Below are positions 11,324-28,503 of a stretch of DNA of 29,575 bases, piece by piece. The notes under the pieces were generated by a model. That model was not told the DNA's origin. It searched no databases and saw nothing but the letters and a program-made list of their open reading frames with translations. A program made the translations under genes and the position numbers. The stretch comes from Pyrinomonadaceae bacterium. Its GTDB lineage: Bacteria > Acidobacteriota > Blastocatellia > Pyrinomonadales > Pyrinomonadaceae. The stretch is taken from the NCBI GenBank assembly GCA_036009285.1, contig DASYMB010000235.1, forward strand, positions 1 through 29,575, given 5' to 3'. Position 1 is the first letter of the stretch; each line of letters starts with the position of its first letter.

Positions 11324-11643
11324 TCAGGGAATATCCAAATGTTGAAAACGAGCGGGCTGCATCTTTTCTATGGCTTCCGCAATCAAGGAGCCGGCAGCCT
11401 GAAATGCGGTGGAGGTCGTTTGTTTGAAAGCTCCAGAATGGAGATGAGTCTGCCAGTCAGGTTTTGTTGATAGCGAATGTTCTGGTCGGAGGTAATGAAT
11501 AGATCAAATTCGGCTTCAGCTCTTTGCAACAAGTCGCCATTTCTTCGGCCACTCCATCCCTGGCCTTGCACGCTGGTGCACGAGTGGCCCGTTATTAGGC
11601 CGTGCATCGGCCAGGGCACGCACTCGTCCAGCAGAATTTTCAC
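11324..11643 (-). pseudogene. DUF5615 PIN-like toxin (VapC45-like), frameshifted near the 3' end
   Basis: MKILLDECVP...NGDLL..AE..FDLFITSDQNIRYQQN. Removing one extra A and one extra T around 11402-11427 restores LSTNDLHRIQAAGSLIAEAIEKMQPARFQHLDIP* (105 aa). The GTG start overlaps the DUF433 stop (GTGA). Confidence 0.75.
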
Positions 11644-11855
11644 GCGGCGGGAGAAAGCAAAGCCTGTTCAGAGCGTTCCAATACCTGACAGGCCAAGTCG
11701 CGGCTCACGGAGGGAAAGCACTCCAGAAACTGCTCCAATGAGTAATCGTTTTCCAAGTACTCAAAAAGAGTCTTCACCGGCACACGCGTACCTTTGAAAA
11801 CCGGCGTACCACCGAGAATCTCAGGGTCAATGGCGATGAGGTCGTTGGTGGTCAT
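11640..11855 (-). CDS. DUF433 domain antitoxin (VapB45-like)
   Basis: I.IDPEILGGTPVFKGTRVPV.TLFEYLE...SLEQFLE.FPSV signature, coupled to the DUF5615 gene. Confidence 0.92.
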   Translation of the reverse strand: MTTNDLIAIDPEILGGTPVFKGTRVPVKTLFEYLENDYSLEQFLECFPSVSRDLACQVLERSEQALLSPAA

Positions 11856-11917
11856 GGATCTGAGTTTAGTCGAAGGGTGGCCGTGCCGTAAATGCCGAAT
11901 CAATCAACCCTACCAGA

Positions 11918-14900
11918 CTAAACATGCTTCAACTCGGACCGCTCTGGCAAGCGATAAAACTCCCGCGCCGGCTTCAATGGGCGCAGCATCCAGTAGGGGC
12001 GGCGAGTGCCGTCTGGTGAATATTGATCTGCAGGTCGCGTCATTGCCAGCCACTTGCGGTAAACCTCGCGCGACTTCTCAGTATCCACAAATACATCGCC
12101 GGTGTTATCGCCGGGTTCGGCGACACGCACGCGCACCGCCTGATGCCAGCAGTGCATTCCCGAGATTGGATCGGGATGGACTGGGAAAGTCATATTCTGA
12201 TGAACGCCCACGTCGCTCCACCAAATGCGCAGCGTATCAGGGTCGCTTGACTCGTAGGGCTCGGCGCCTTTCTCACGTTTGAGTCCCCACTCGGTTCCAT
12301 CGTGATCGAGTTTCACCGTCGCCATCAACTGGCGTTGTCCCTGTTCACTCAACTTCCAGCGGCCCATGTGATGCGAGCAGGCAACGATGCCGGGACGAAT
12401 GCCTTCCGTCACCCATGCGCGCACCACGTAGTAACCAATCTCGGTTTCCACGCGCAACAGATCGCCGGTGCGCACTCCGAGTTTCGCCGCATGATTTGTG
12501 TGAATCCAAAGTGGATTCGTATGCGCGATTTCATCGAGCCATTTGGCGTTAGCGCTGCGCGTATGAATTTGCACCGGCAAACGAAAAGTCGAGATCAGGA
12601 TCGTTTGGCCCTCTTCGAGGTTGTCGGGATGAACGTGGCTCTTGATGTAAGTGGGAATCGCAAACTCATGCCAGCCCCACTCGGACAACGTGCGCGAATA
12701 GAATTCCAGACGGCCGCTCGGCGTGGGAAACCCGCGCTTGATTTCGTTTCCGACTCTAACACCTACGAAGCGCCGGCCATCTTCCTTGCCGTCGCCATCG
12801 GGACTCGGCACCGGAACGACGTTGGGCGATGCTGGTTTCGGCGCCCGCGTGTAGACGCGGCCACGTTCGTCCTCGCGAATGTCTTCGATCTCTTCCGGGC
12901 CAACGGGTTCTTCATATATCGCGCCAACTTTTTGTTTCACCTCGAAAGCGCCGTAGCGACGCATGAATTCCAGCGGCGTCAAACCTTCCGCCGCCGCTTT
13001 CTCCGGCAATCCAGGAACGGAGTTGTCGAAAATCCATTCGTAGTATTCATCCACACCGAGCCGCGTGCCCGGATTCTTTTTTGATTCGACGTACTGGCGT
13101 ATGCCGAGTGAGCCGTCCGGATCGATGCGCCAGGTCAGTTCCAACCAAAACTCATTCTCTTCCCAAACCTCGCCGGGATTCACTTTCCGGGTATCGTCAA
13201 TCGTTTCCCCTTCGCGCTGCCGATCCGCTTTCTTAACCGGCTGACGAAATCCCAACCACTGCGCGTCGTGCGTTTCGTATGAATGAATGTCATGGCGTTC
13301 CGAGCCATGGCCCATCGGCAAAACGTAGTCGGCGAAATAGGAGGTCTCGTTCCACGTCGGTGTCAGCGCCACGTAACAACCGACCAGGTCCGGATCAGTT
13401 AACATCTCGATCCAGGAGAAGCCGTCAGGATTAGTCCAGACCGGGTTGTAGACGCGCGTGAAATAAACATCGAGCTTGGCGCGTCCGTCCTTTAATAGAT
13501 GCGGCAGCAGGAACGACATCTCGTGCATCGCCAGCGGATACTCGCGCGGCCACTGTGTTTCGTTCCACATCCGCGGATGTGGCGGCGTGTAGATTGGCTT
13601 AGGCACAAACTTGTTCCAGGCATTCGGAAACACGCCGCCTTCCGTGGCGATCGCGCCGAGCAGCGCATTCAACATGAAGACCGCGCGCGCAACCGCCCAG
13701 CCGCCGCTAACTCCCGACGTCACGCTGCGCCAGTTGTGACTGGAGAAGCGCGTGCCCGCCGTCGCAATCAACTTCGCAATCTCTTCAATAGTTCTGGCGT
13801 CAACGCCGGATTCACTCGCGGCGAAGTCGAAGGTGTATTGCTGATACGTTTCTTTGAGTGCCGCCTCGAAGGTTGCGAAATCGGTTTTTACTGGGACCGC
13901 GGGCGTATCGCCCGTTTCTTCGCGCCGTAGGTGCGGAATGTTTATGGCGGCATCATTTCCATTTGAATCTTTTCCGAGCGCAGCAAAACGCTCGGCATTC
14001 TGCTCCGCTCGAAAGGAGGGTTGTGGTAGTGAGTCAGGTTCCATAAACATTTCGCCGCTCTGCGGCTGTGCTTCTGATCTCTGACCGACCTCTGACCTCT
14101 GTTCTAAGTATTCTTCCCAGTTCCACCAACGTCGCACAAACTCGCGGTTGTAGAGATCGTTTTGAATCAGATAATTCGCAATCGCCAACAACATCGCGCC
14201 CTCTGAACCGGGATAGGGCGCGACCCAGTAGTCGGCATGCGTGGCCGTGTGCGAAAGCCGCGTGTCGAAGACGATTAACTTGGCGCCGTTGGCTTTGCCG
14301 TCAATGATGCGCTGCGCGTGCGGGTTGAAATAATGGCCCGATTCCAGATGCGCGCTGATGAGCAGGATAACTTTGGCGTTCGCATGGTCGGGGCTGGGCC
14401 GATCAAGTCCCATCCATAGTTGATAACCTTCGCGGCTGCCGGAGGAACAGATGTTGGTGTGCGAGTTGTGACCATCAATTCCCCAGGCGGCGAGTATGCG
14501 TTCGGTGAAACCATCTTCGCCCGGCCGGCCGACGTGATACATGATCTCGTTGCGACGCTCCTCGACGATCGCTTTGCGAATGCGCGAGGCGATATCGTCA
14601 AGCGCTGCGTCCCAGCTAACGCGTTCCCATTTACCCTGGCCGCGTTTGCCGCTGCGCTTGAGTGGGTAAAGAATGCGATCCGGATCGTGAATCTGGTTGA
14701 GTGTTGCCGGACCTTTGGCGCAGTTGCGTCCGCGCGATCCCGGATGCTCGGGATTGCCTTCAAACTTCTGGATCTCGCCGGTGATCTTGTCGATGTAGGC
14801 GAGCAGCCCACACGCTGACTCGCAGTTGAAGCAGGTCGTGGGAACTAATGAATAGTGACGCTCCTTGCGCCGCGGCCACGCTTGCGAATCAAGCTCGGTC

Positions 14901-15034
14901 CAGTTGTCCCAACGCTCCTTCGGCGGATACGCCGCGAGATGGCTGCGCGAAGGGCCGGGATAAAACGTCTCGCCACGCGCTTCTGTTTCTTCCCGCGCAG
15001 CACCAATCAGTTGGTTTGATTCGTCAGGGTTCAT
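11918..15034 (-). CDS. Molybdopterin (bis-MGD) oxidoreductase catalytic subunit, DMSO reductase family, Psr/Phs/Ttr-like; no Tat signal
   Basis: FS0 motif C68-x2-C71-x3-C75...C105-A-K-G, then DPDRILYPLKR.G.RG.GKWE.VSWD. Candidate Mo ligand C196 (HTNICSS). Also ADYVLP and a C-terminal Mo-binding domain (F.TPSG.LEF; LWIH...A.KLG...GD). AGGAGA RBS. Confidence 0.93.
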   Translation of the reverse strand: MNPDESNQLIGAAREETEARGETFYPGPSRSHLAAYPPKERWDNWTELDSQAWPRRKERHYSLVPTTCFNCESACGLLAYIDKITGEIQKFEGNPEHPGSRGRNCAKGPATLNQIHDPDRILYPLKRSGKRGQGKWERVSWDAALDDIASRIRKAIVEERRNEIMYHVGRPGEDGFTERILAAWGIDGHNSHTNICSSGSREGYQLWMGLDRPSPDHANAKVILLISAHLESGHYFNPHAQRIIDGKANGAKLIVFDTRLSHTATHADYWVAPYPGSEGAMLLAIANYLIQNDLYNREFVRRWWNWEEYLEQRSEVGQRSEAQPQSGEMFMEPDSLPQPSFRAEQNAERFAALGKDSNGNDAAINIPHLRREETGDTPAVPVKTDFATFEAALKETYQQYTFDFAASESGVDARTIEEIAKLIATAGTRFSSHNWRSVTSGVSGGWAVARAVFMLNALLGAIATEGGVFPNAWNKFVPKPIYTPPHPRMWNETQWPREYPLAMHEMSFLLPHLLKDGRAKLDVYFTRVYNPVWTNPDGFSWIEMLTDPDLVGCYVALTPTWNETSYFADYVLPMGHGSERHDIHSYETHDAQWLGFRQPVKKADRQREGETIDDTRKVNPGEVWEENEFWLELTWRIDPDGSLGIRQYVESKKNPGTRLGVDEYYEWIFDNSVPGLPEKAAAEGLTPLEFMRRYGAFEVKQKVGAIYEEPVGPEEIEDIREDERGRVYTRAPKPASPNVVPVPSPDGDGKEDGRRFVGVRVGNEIKRGFPTPSGRLEFYSRTLSEWGWHEFAIPTYIKSHVHPDNLEEGQTILISTFRLPVQIHTRSANAKWLDEIAHTNPLWIHTNHAAKLGVRTGDLLRVETEIGYYVVRAWVTEGIRPGIVACSHHMGRWKLSEQGQRQLMATVKLDHDGTEWGLKREKGAEPYESSDPDTLRIWWSDVGVHQNMTFPVHPDPISGMHCWHQAVRVRVAEPGDNTGDVFVDTEKSREVYRKWLAMTRPADQYSPDGTRRPYWMLRPLKPAREFYRLPERSELKHV
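13880..14104 (-). repeat. Stack of REP-like palindromes and heptamer filler, translated in frame inside the molybdoenzyme
   Basis: CTGGGACCGCGGGCGTATCGCCCG (13891-13914). Inverted arms GCCGTAGGTGCGGAATGTTTATGG (13924-13947) and CCATAAACATTTCGCCGCTCTGCGGC (14041-14066). Hairpin CCGAGCG/CGCTCGG (13974-13995). TCTGACC-type heptamers (14073-14101). Confidence 0.65.
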
Positions 15035-15266: not shown

Positions 15267-15605
15267 CTAGCTCGATCGCAACAACGTATTCAGCTTTTTC
15301 AACGCTTCATCCGTTACAGAAGCTGGAAGTCTACAAATCAATTTGGTGTCACGAGCTTTCCAGTCGAGATTCTTGACTTGATCTGACAAGATTGCTCCCG
15401 TCACCTTCAAACCGTGAGGGATGATTACCTCAAATGGGTAGCCTTTGATCTGATTTGTAATCGGGCAAAGAACAACGAGGCCGACTTTGCGATTGTAGGC
15501 GACAGGCGACAACACCACTGCCGGTCGCCTGCCCGCCTGTTCGTGTCCGGCTTGTGGATCAAGCGTAACCCATACGGCATCGCCTCGATCGGGAGCATAC
15601 GCCAT
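15267..15605 (-). CDS. mazF: MazF/PemK endoribonuclease toxin
   Basis: P.RGD.VWV.LDPQAGHEQAGRRPAVVLSP..YN.K.GL...CPIT.Q.KGYPFEV; ILSDQVKNLDW.AR. TAATG overlap with mazE. Confidence 0.95.
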   Translation of the reverse strand: MAYAPDRGDAVWVTLDPQAGHEQAGRRPAVVLSPVAYNRKVGLVVLCPITNQIKGYPFEVIIPHGLKVTGAILSDQVKNLDWKARDTKLICRLPASVTDEALKKLNTLLRSS

Positions 15606-15847
15606 TACCAAACCTCTTTTCCAAGCGAAGCCCCGAAATCGACTTCCGAGTGAAGATTCTTTTTGGTTACTCGAGCCAGCAAATCCTCTAAGGAGTAATT
15701 TTGTTCTTTCGTCGGTTCCACGATCATTCTGCCATTGTCCAGCGATAAATCAACCACTGTGCCTTGCACTATGCTTGAGTGCGTCGCAAAAGACTTGGGA
15801 ATTCGCAACGCCAAACTATTTCCCCATTTTTGAATTGTAGCTTTCAT
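15605..15847 (-). CDS. mazE: MazE/AbrB-family antitoxin
   Basis: IQKWGNSLALRIPK...YSLEDLLA.VT..NLH.EVDFG...GKEVW. GAGGAGGA RBS. Confidence 0.95.
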   Translation of the reverse strand: MKATIQKWGNSLALRIPKSFATHSSIVQGTVVDLSLDNGRMIVEPTKEQNYSLEDLLARVTKKNLHSEVDFGASLGKEVW

Positions 15848-15923: not shown

Positions 15924-17522
15924 TCACGCCAGCGGCACCGATTGTCCGGCCTGCACGTAAGCATTCTCGTAAAGCATCATTCCAACTAAGGCCAGCGGCA
16001 CGCCAACGACGCCCAGGGATATGCTGACGTAACCAAGAATCGCGAGCCACGGCAACAGTCCGCCGAGAAACGACAGTGCAACACCGATCCAGAAGTCTCC
16101 CTTGTAACGACCACGTACCATTTCCCAAACAGCAAGACGCGCGTGGGCCGTTGAGTGTGTAAGCGACACTTCACCCCAGATCATCAGCAAGTGGAGCAGG
16201 CTTGTTATCGCGAGCAACCAAATCGAAGCCGCCACAGGAGGAGCCGTGCCAATATGGGGGTCGAGAATGTCCCGAGCGTTCGGACCGACAGTCCATAAAG
16301 TAATGAACAGCAGCACAGCCGAGCCCAGCAGCAACGCCTGCACAAGCAGATGCGGAGGCAGCAGCGGGTTTTGCCACATGTCGCGCGCCTTTGCTTGCGC
16401 AAAAAGAAAAGCCGTATAGATCGCGGTCATGATCGACAACGGAATTCCCGCGAGCATCAACCAACTTTGCAGTGTTCTTGATCCCAGCCAACTGGCAAGG
16501 AAATGAAGCGCGAGGACAAGCGTGTAGCCGGCAATGATGAATGCGCCTTTCACCAGCCAACTGCGCCACTGCGGTCGCGTGAAGATCAGATAGAAGCGCT
16601 CCGGATGTTCGAGGTCCCAGATTAAGAGCCCGCCAGTGATCGCCAGAAAGACGCCGGAAACAAGCGGCGTGGCCCAGAGCCAAATAGAATTGTTAACACT
16701 TAAGAATCCAAACCAGACGAGCAATGCCACAACGAGATACACACCAGCGGCAATCCCCTTGGTCCAGGTATAAAGGCTGACCTTCCAGTCCCAGGGAATC
16801 GCGTGCGCGACGTCATAGGAAAGCAGCGCCGCTGCCGAGCTGTTGTTGTAGTTTGGATTCCCGGAAACGACTTGCGACGAACCTTCCTGCTGCTCGCTCC
16901 ACATGAAGAGTCCGCCGTCGGGTCGTCGTGCGGCGAGCGGATCGAGCGTCGACTGATGCGCGCCCTTGTAAAAAAGTTTCGGCAGCGTTTCCTTCTCGGG
17001 TCGCCTTACAGCGACCGCCTCGCGATTGACGATTTGCGAAACGTACGATTCGGTATCGTTCAAGTCGCCGATTAGAATTGCCTGCGTCGGACAGACGACC
17101 ACGCACGCGGGCTCGAGACCCACGTCGATGCGATGCGCGCAGAAGTTACATTTCTCGGCTGAATGATCTTCGGGATTAATGAAAATCGCATCGTAAGGGC
17201 AAGCGGCCATGCAGGCTTTGCAACCGATGCAGATCGACTTATCAAAATCGACTATGCCATCGTCGCGCTTAAACATCGCGGTGGTGGGGCAGGCGGTGAC
17301 GCATGGCGCATGAGCGCATTGGTTGCAACGCGTGACTTGATGTGCGCGGCGGGCCTGCGGAAAAATTCCTACATCAACATGCTTCACATAGGTGCGCGTC
17401 ACCGAGAGCGGCACCAGATTCTCCGACTTGCACGCGGTGGTACACGCATGACAACCAATGCAACGCGTTTGGTCGATGACCTTGGCCCACTGCACCGCGC
17501 GATTTTGTGGTTCTTCGAGCAT
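15924..17522 (-). CDS. Fusion of a 4x[4Fe-4S] DmsB/NrfC-type subunit and an NrfD/PsrC-type membrane anchor (about 8 TM)
   Basis: Cys clusters CIGCHACTTAC, CNQCAHAPCVTAC, CIGCKACMAAC and CNFC...PACVVVC. NrfD features W.W.VSLY..TKGIAAG, DLEHPERF..I..RPQW.SWL..GA and about 8 hydrophobic segments. Start chosen at MLEEPQ. Confidence 0.92.
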   Translation of the reverse strand: MLEEPQNRAVQWAKVIDQTRCIGCHACTTACKSENLVPLSVTRTYVKHVDVGIFPQARRAHQVTRCNQCAHAPCVTACPTTAMFKRDDGIVDFDKSICIGCKACMAACPYDAIFINPEDHSAEKCNFCAHRIDVGLEPACVVVCPTQAILIGDLNDTESYVSQIVNREAVAVRRPEKETLPKLFYKGAHQSTLDPLAARRPDGGLFMWSEQQEGSSQVVSGNPNYNNSSAAALLSYDVAHAIPWDWKVSLYTWTKGIAAGVYLVVALLVWFGFLSVNNSIWLWATPLVSGVFLAITGGLLIWDLEHPERFYLIFTRPQWRSWLVKGAFIIAGYTLVLALHFLASWLGSRTLQSWLMLAGIPLSIMTAIYTAFLFAQAKARDMWQNPLLPPHLLVQALLLGSAVLLFITLWTVGPNARDILDPHIGTAPPVAASIWLLAITSLLHLLMIWGEVSLTHSTAHARLAVWEMVRGRYKGDFWIGVALSFLGGLLPWLAILGYVSISLGVVGVPLALVGMMLYENAYVQAGQSVPLA

Positions 17523-17721
17523 GCAAGCTCCGGTTCCAGGATTTTGCGGAGAGCGAACTATATCATGCAACTAAGAAAAGAAAACGTGCGCATTTAGTTG
17601 GAAACTAGCAGCCAGACAAGTCTGCGACACGAGTGCAGCATTGACAAAAGCACACAGGCATAAGAAATTAGCCTCGGATTATTTGTGGTTAGTTATTATG
17701 GTTTCATCAGGAGGTTTATCG

Positions 17722-28455: not shown

Positions 28456-28503
28456 AAACACCCCAGCCGGGCTGCCCGGCCGGGAAGCACCTTTGCTTTA
28501 TTA

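Follow-up and report, generated by a model that had tools for sequence, protein, structure and literature searches.

Three kinds of genomic repeat read in frame in one loop of a PsrA/PhsA-like molybdoenzyme gene of Pyrinomonadaceae

The stretch of DNA analysed here (the window, 29,575 nucleotides) comes from a Pyrinomonadaceae bacterium, in whose metagenome-assembled genome (3.27 Mb, 454 contigs, 77% complete) it forms contig C235. On its minus strand lies the gene P0001, which encodes an oxidoreductase related to PsrA/PhsA. Within this gene, 75 codons take the place of an ancestral loop of about 10 residues. The protein reads ...RRWWNWEEYL, then these 75 aa, then FATFEAALKETY. The insert is a floppy low-complexity loop, and its entire DNA can be assigned to dispersed repeat families of the same genome: an array of heptamers (family C), a miniature inverted-repeat transposable element (MITE; family B) and an arm of a repetitive extragenic palindrome (REP; family A). 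The features are listed below.

11918..15034, minus strand: host gene P0001, 1038-aa PsrA/PhsA-like Mo/W-bis(pyranopterin guanine dinucleotide) (Mo/W-bisPGD) oxidoreductase; open reading frame (ORF) intact
13880..14104, minus strand: in-frame insert, 75 codons, residues 311-385, in place of the ancestral loop
14066..14104, minus strand: heptamer array of family C (CAGAGGT-type units, one interrupted), read as EQRSEVGQRSEAQ
13916..14069, no strand assigned: family B MITE, complete and slightly decayed, read as PQSGEMFME...AAINIPHLRRE
13933..13947, no strand assigned: one arm of the family B terminal inverted repeat (TIR), GGAATGTTTATGG type, 93% complementary to 14041..14055
14041..14055, no strand assigned: the other arm of the family B TIR, CCATAAACATTTC type
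13972..14014, no strand assigned: central palindrome of family B, arms 13972-91 / 13995-14014 (20 nt, 3-nt loop, 80% complementary)
13885..13914, plus strand: single REP arm of family A, read on the minus strand as TGDTPAVPVKT, 26/27 to consensus

Repeat families behind the insert

A blastn search of the 225-nt insert against its own genome gave 67 matches, and their per-base coverage resolved three distinct repeated blocks. Every sub-element is multi-copy, in line with the first-pass annotation of this DNA, which had taken the insert to be derived from repeats. In gene order the pieces are the heptamer array, the family B MITE and the family A REP arm. The DNA features named in that annotation all lie where it had placed them: TCTGACC-type heptamers at 14070-14104 (including a direct repeat, D1, at 14076-86 / 14087-97), the inverted arms, a 7-bp hairpin that forms part of the 20-nt inverted repeat 13972-91 / 13995-14014, and a CGGGCG-TAT-CGCCCG palindrome at 13898-13914. 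Its description of the insertions as REP-type stood for the family A arm, a strict REP, and failed for the other two pieces, the largest being a MITE associated with IS200/IS605 and the third a heptamer array. As single-stranded DNA (ssDNA), the 225 nt fold at -41.3 kcal/mol, compared with -29.7 +/- 3.3 for shuffled sequences (z = -3.5; 0/200 shuffles equal).

Family A is abundant in the genome. Its 18-mer core, at no more than 2 mismatches, has 54 copies in the 3.27-Mb assembly where calculation gives about 0.14 expected, and a looser 15-mer core has 122. The element has two parts, the roughly 30-nt head TTACTGGGACC and, after it, the hairpin GCGGGCG-NNN-CGCCCGC. We found 31 inverted doublets, mostly 100-135 bp with variable spacers, which is the layout of REP doublets forming hairpins (REPINs); family A thus combines the palindrome and the doublets expected of REP/REPIN sequences. 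Neither the GTAG nor the CGTC end tag of the Di Nocera super-families is present in the family A consensus, in its head or in the reverse complement of that head, GGTCCCAGTAA.

Family B is a palindromic element of about 150-175 bp. Its parts follow the order hairpin, (G/A)A(A/G)ATGTTTATAG, inner hairpins, CTATAAACAT(C/T)TCG, hairpin, and its stems vary among copies with complementarity retained. A nhmmer profile built from 38 other copies aligned the window copy end to end, over model positions 10-184 and 154 nt (E=1.3e-9, whole-genome search). The genome holds 78 unique family B loci, of which 69 are at least 120 nt long, and the short copies carry no ORF; related genomes also hold copies. 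The decay of the window MITE amounts to the 80% complementarity of its central arms, which are 20/20 complementary in the ortholog from genome G003, and one mismatch in the right hairpin. Its terminal stem shows one compensatory change, from A-T to G-C.

A search for the Y1 HUH transposase family gave nine matches in the genome. The best of these, a 189-aa gene on contig C420 (L144:784-1353, minus strand), scored 96 bits against Pfam Y1_Tnp and 71 bits against the NCBIfam IS200/IS605 model, above the cut-off of 55. Against the NCBIfam model for REP-associated tyrosine transposases (RAYTs) it reached 32.8 bits, with a cut-off of 80. Family B termini and GCTCC-NNN-GGAGC hairpins bound the gene at either side, oriented inward as in the short copies. 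As the gene carries family B ends, the most fitting description of family B is that of a MITE derived from an IS200/IS605-type element with TIRs, and the C420 element is likely an autonomous relative of that MITE.

CAGAGGT-type heptamer arrays occur on 17 contigs, and only the window array lies inside a long ORF. They often take the form of two inverted arrays around a short spacer, (CAGAGGT)n ... (ACCTCTG)n, as at C64:2040-2290, C379:1100-1210 and C363:3800-3870. Such arrays may be arms of a foldback element.

A scan of other genes for in-frame inserts, which the first-pass annotation had proposed, was productive for family A. Its arms are in frame in five other real genes of the genome, where the peptide is mostly TGTAGVSPA. 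An AddA/UvrD-type helicase-nuclease on contig C444 (L139:1450-5634, minus strand), with UvrD-helicase, UvrD_C and PDDEXK_1 domains, contains two full family A doublets that keep the frame: one lies at residues 520-555 or so, and the other, which encloses a nested fifth-family REP, at roughly 1190-1242. Single arms are in frame in a methionyl-tRNA synthetase (C41, L140:1308-3578), a DAO-family dehydrogenase (C97, L141:609-2360), a histidine kinase, between HisKA and HATPase (C188, L142:1331-3043), and an alpha-2-macroglobulin (C416, L143:1388-7819). Many loose 15-mer matches within ORFs were discarded as chance near-matches. The same scan for family B in other long ORFs of the genome turned up nothing beyond spurious ORFs and 11-mer matches attributable to chance, indicating that in this genome family B is in frame solely in the molybdoenzyme gene.

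The loop in orthologous genes

We compared the segment between the motifs VRRWWNWEEY and YTFEFAA across orthologs. In about 65 of them it is exactly 25 aa, with an 11-residue loop (e.g. LAVEHPELETN), which agrees with an earlier expectation of roughly 10 aa; in the window it is 90 aa. The 25-aa group comprises Gemmatimonadota, Actinomycetota, Chloroflexota, Binatia, Planctomycetota and basal Pyrinomonadaceae. Segments of 31-107 aa were found only in one Pyrinomonadaceae subclade. A conserved ortholog segment of similar length had been named in advance as a sign against repeat insertion; segments of such length do occur, and only in relatives carrying the same repeat DNA. In most congeners the match splits at residues 311/384, and the element is missing in nearly all of them.

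The long loops differ in what they contain. Heptamer arrays of several unit types, visible in the ortholog DNA, give periods of QRSEVGG, SSEFRVS and SLKSQVS. Family B appears in dozens of orthologs as P(R/Q)SGEMFI ... SINISRLRRE, and family A as GETPAVPGK. A fourth family ('SQVGKGGLPPP' type), read as DSQVGKGGLPPP, yields 54 and 60 matches, arranged as inverted pairs, in two carrier genomes. A fifth, read as FHPSGAAPPGTPG or GCPAGDPA in sister-genome loops, has copies in the window's own genome. Both of these are REP families that number dozens of copies in the sister genomes whose loops contain them. Repeat-coded expansions thus differ by lineage, marking the loop as a hot spot for different repeats, and the sequences indicate that in this subclade it is hypervariable and made from at least five repeat families. 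The order of heptamer array, MITE and REP recurs in three database proteins with 91% identity to P0001, whose contigs reach 890 kb.

Two further observations concern repeats of this kind. An intergenic fifth-family REP copy (CCCCAGCCGGGCTGCCCGGCCGGG type) lies in the window at 28459-28484. On the C-terminal side of the insert, the peptide G(D/E)EVSTGSGSDRV recurs after the MITE in L111, L119, L124 and L128; a further repeat family is its probable source.

The reading frame is kept throughout. Every one of the 24 family B copies taken from orthologous genes is open and, at 69-147 nt, has a length divisible by 3, and the insert is open in more than 50 database orthologs. In the 450 nt upstream of the site, 15 insert-bearing orthologs show column identities of 0.95, 0.99 and 0.70 at codon positions 1, 2 and 3. 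The FS0 cysteines C68/C71/C75/C105 and C196 do not vary among 54 orthologs. The codon-position pattern, the invariant cysteines and the open copies together indicate a gene under purifying selection whose insert is read through, and the insert is presumably translated along with its host protein.

An AlphaFold2 model run on a 54-sequence alignment (predicted template-modelling score, pTM, 0.79) gave residues 317-381 a predicted local distance difference test (pLDDT) score of about 30, and the flanking helices 306-318 and 386-397 scores of 93-98. The insert is thus predicted to be disordered. This disorder, taken with the variability in loop length, suggests that it lies on the protein surface.

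Among Pyrinomonadaceae genomes, 280 of 401 have the gene and about 20 a collinear family B insert. Most of these carriers belong to another genus (code g19) and few to the window's genus. Nothing concluded here depends on the unpublished genomes G213, G435, G272, G421, G057, G183 and G322. One set of terminal hairpin variants is common to the in-gene family B copies, and copies at other sites of a genome have different stems there; the shared variants suggest that the in-gene copies descend from one insertion. The MITE copy therefore appears to be old and orthologous across genera, neither recent nor private. A FastTree phylogeny of 140 orthologs, with the insert masked, required at least 8 changes in the state of family B and at least 21 in that of the heptamer array. 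We considered a single gain of the MITE, which is at odds with the number of changes in that topology. Close relatives differ in the type of heptamer unit, QRSEVGQRSE in the window and QSSEFRVSSSES in P0002-P0004, with the rest of the insert about 90% identical. These unit differences fit concerted change within the arrays.

Each piece of the insert is homologous to a dispersed family, the segment is missing in most orthologs and the host gene is intact. We conclude, with a probability of about 0.88, that the 75 residues are a stack of three genomic repeat pieces, inserted or expanded in one permissive loop and read in frame. On the assumption that the loop is disordered and open to solvent, an insertion would be nearly neutral for the enzyme as long as it preserved the frame and brought in no stop codon. 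The first resident repeat may then have drawn in others, as repeats cluster in intergenic DNA. The stems of the MITE would be held palindromic by a DNA-level process that also works on intergenic copies, while selection on the host gene would hold the MITE open and its length at a multiple of three.

Some observations weigh against this reading. The window clade (P0001-P0005, 89-91% identity), which has the heptamer array, family B and family A, is nested in a clade with heptamer and fourth-family inserts, and this position requires losses, replacements or recombination. Some 11-residue loops in one subclade are heptamer-like (e.g. LSFESEVSSFA), and an origin of the heptamer array in situ retains some probability. 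Finally, 0/9 Y1_Tnp matches in the 77%-complete genome had family A arms within 1.2 kb.

Palindromy of the translated MITE

Fifteen orthologous in-gene copies of family B were aligned (alignment A1) and their common structure was predicted with RNAalifold. Four helices resulted: a left terminal hairpin, a 10-bp stem joining the TIRs, a 16-bp central hairpin and a right terminal hairpin. Pairing in these helices was compared with shuffled alignments, a control that sequence relatedness is known to inflate, and with slid controls:

Standard-paired cells: 95.9% observed; 86.3% shuffled (0/500 reach the observed value); 32-48% in slid controls
Pairs changed on both sides: 15 observed; 8.4 shuffled; 4-5 in slid controls
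Cells changed on both sides: 49 observed; 14.7 shuffled; 5-12 in slid controls

In the central stem 12/16 pairs have changed on both sides, and G-U intermediates are nearly absent. Third codon positions are conserved at 0.84-0.86 in the MITE arms compared with 0.70 in the flanking gene. Intergenic family B copies in G003 (C10:156520, C13:631086) and G020 (C87:5829, C185:23430) have perfect central palindromes, each of a different sequence. The pattern indicates that some process regenerates palindromy in family B. The near-absence of wobble pairs and the perfect intergenic palindromes point to a cause at the DNA level rather than to a function of the host mRNA. That cause could be template-switch correction of quasipalindromes, as shown in E. 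coli (PMC7202029), or selection for a hairpin in ssDNA, which has been put forward for REPINs (PMC3116915).

The strongest alternative to a tolerated repeat stack is that the nucleic-acid structure of the MITE serves the host, as an mRNA or ssDNA hairpin acting in translation, cofactor insertion or mRNA stability, with the peptide as a by-product. The retention of all four stems in the 15 orthologous copies, the changes on both sides of most central pairs and the high conservation of third codon positions in the arms count in its favour. However, the scarcity of G-U pairs in the central stem speaks for complementarity of DNA and not for pairing of RNA, the copy-specific perfection of intergenic palindromes makes palindromy a property of the family and not of this gene, and most orthologs, including nearly all congeners, function without the MITE. 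The shuffle controls are also inflated by the kinship of the sequences. We therefore regard a host function of the structure as unlikely.

A related possibility is that the loop is a maintained hypervariable or contingency site, at which slippage of single heptamer units toggles the enzyme or the MITE hairpins act as a selected signal. If this were true, it would be a case of selfish repeats in an enzyme gene being domesticated by a bacterial family; we give the idea the same low standing.

Alternatives, known systems and gene neighbourhood

The remaining alternatives to the repeat stack fare worse. Decay of a gene inactivated by its insert is very improbable: the presence of mobile DNA inside the gene is all that suggests a pseudogene, and the 1038-codon frame is intact, the cluster-binding and active-site cysteines are all conserved, the insert is open in the database orthologs and insert-bearing orthologs keep the codon pattern of purifying selection. 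Even less credit is due to an ordinary lineage-specific low-complexity linker, grown by slippage and drift and resembling repeats by coincidence. The peptide is indeed of low complexity and predicted to be disordered, and the loop lengths of relatives vary continuously, but the DNA matches dispersed families (26/27 identity for the REP arm; E=1.3e-9 over 154 nt for the MITE), and its termini, hairpins and part order are those of intergenic elements. An assembly or binning artefact that misjoined a repeat cluster into the gene, conceivable for a fragmented, 77%-complete genome of 454 contigs since contigs often end in repeats, is about as improbable: the sequence on either flank belongs to one gene and is collinear with that of orthologs, the frame continues through the insert, and homologous inserts with the same part order occur in independent assemblies.

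In-frame palindromic repeats are established for Rickettsia palindromic elements (RPEs; Ogata et al. 2000, 2002, as summarised in PMC10969869), for Wolbachia palindromic elements (PMC10969869) and for REPs in several phyla (PMC3733652). The present insert shows the traits of RPE-like elements: dispersed multi-copy DNA, a segment missing in orthologs, and a frame and host gene that are preserved. As in Rickettsia and Wolbachia, palindromic family repeats of about 100-150 bp are in frame in unrelated housekeeping genes. As with RPEs, a peptide segment is added, the host protein stays intact and insert-free orthologs exist. In contrast to RPEs, the host is a free-living soil acidobacterium and not a reduced intracellular genome, three repeat kinds share one loop (five or more when relatives are counted), a tandem array of heptamers that is not a palindrome is among them, and the genome encodes a Y1 transposase as a candidate for mobilisation.

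Di Nocera et al. (2013; PMC3733652) reported, for several species, REPs that lie entirely within ORFs, with replication and repair genes as the hosts of many, and RAYT-like genes flanked by long TIRs ('TIRYT') with moderately abundant repeats, including a distinct Acidobacteria group. The AddA/UvrD-type helicase is likewise a repair-type host gene, and the C420 transposase gene flanked by family B TIRs matches the TIRYT layout. In contrast to the REPs of that study, family A has no GTAG or CGTC tag, and a single hypervariable loop common to a bacterial family is not described in the paper.

Bertels and Rainey (2011; PMC3116915) found compensatory changes across REPIN hairpins to be common. Family A resembles REPINs in forming inverted REP doublets with a variable spacer, and differs from the REPIN/RAYT system in that no RAYT with family A arms was found among the nine Y1_Tnp matches. 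The compensatory pattern of family B also differs from that of REPINs, occurring among orthologous copies of one translated element and not only among paralogous copies. Template switching at quasipalindromes (PMC7202029) perfects inverted repeats in one step, giving a compensatory look without G-U, as seen here; unlike its demonstration with E. coli reporters, its action on family B is inferred.

Cyanobacterial short tandemly repeated repetitive (STRR) heptamers are dispersed tandem arrays of 7-nt units. Compared with these, the array described here has other unit sequences, belongs to another phylum and is in frame, with a period of 7 residues.

In-frame selfish repeats in working genes are thus already known, and what stands out here is a matter of degree, in that the insert is composite and long-lived. 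Three repeat kinds in one loop, a heptamer array among them, and at least five families at the site across relatives are unusual. Equally unusual is a MITE copy that appears to be translated and palindromic across genera. Protein-coding palindromes are extended from reduced endosymbiont genomes to free-living soil Acidobacteriota. The loop also provides a natural experiment, fixed at 11 residues over many phyla and repeatedly rebuilt from at least five families in one bacterial family, and the aligned orthologous copies of the translated MITE let DNA palindromy and reading-frame constraint be separated. For annotation, the peptides GEMFI...SINISRLRRE, TGTAGVSPA and QRSEVGG in Pyrinomonadaceae proteins should be taken as repeat DNA and not as domains.

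The host enzyme has the Pfam domains Fe4S4, Molybdopterin and Molydop_binding. Its top match among PDB sequences is Thermus thermophilus PsrA (2VPW), its predicted fold resembles ArrA, PsrA and acetylene hydratase, and Cys196 aligns with the active-site region of PsrA. The FS0 motif together with the Fe4S4, molybdopterin and dinucleotide-binding domains places P0001 among the PsrA/PhsA-type complex iron-sulfur molybdoenzymes. It scored 197 bits against the PhsA equivalog NF012032, far below the cut-off of 694, and no twin-arginine motif of a twin-arginine translocation (Tat) signal was seen by eye in its N-terminus. The adjacent iron-sulfur (FeS) and NrfD-type membrane subunits expected of such an enzyme are present as one fused protein:

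15924..17570, minus strand: upstream partner gene, fused 4Fe-4S (PsrB-like) and NrfD (PsrC-like) protein, 548 aa, Pfam Fer4_11 and NrfD

A 'respiratory' role for P0001 is plausible.

Toxin-antitoxin-like modules are interspersed in the molybdoenzyme operon. A MazE/MazF pair (15267-15847) lies between the FeS-NrfD gene and the molybdoenzyme gene, and a DUF433/DUF5615 pair (11383-11903) lies just downstream of the latter. A metallo-beta-lactamase + rhodanese protein is also encoded downstream. The PsrA-like family to which P0001 belongs (window 11918-15034, loci L054-L108) has no obvious Tat motif and keeps its loop length strictly. It is common, at 62-73% identity, in Gemmatimonadota, Actinomycetota, Chloroflexota, Binatia and others.

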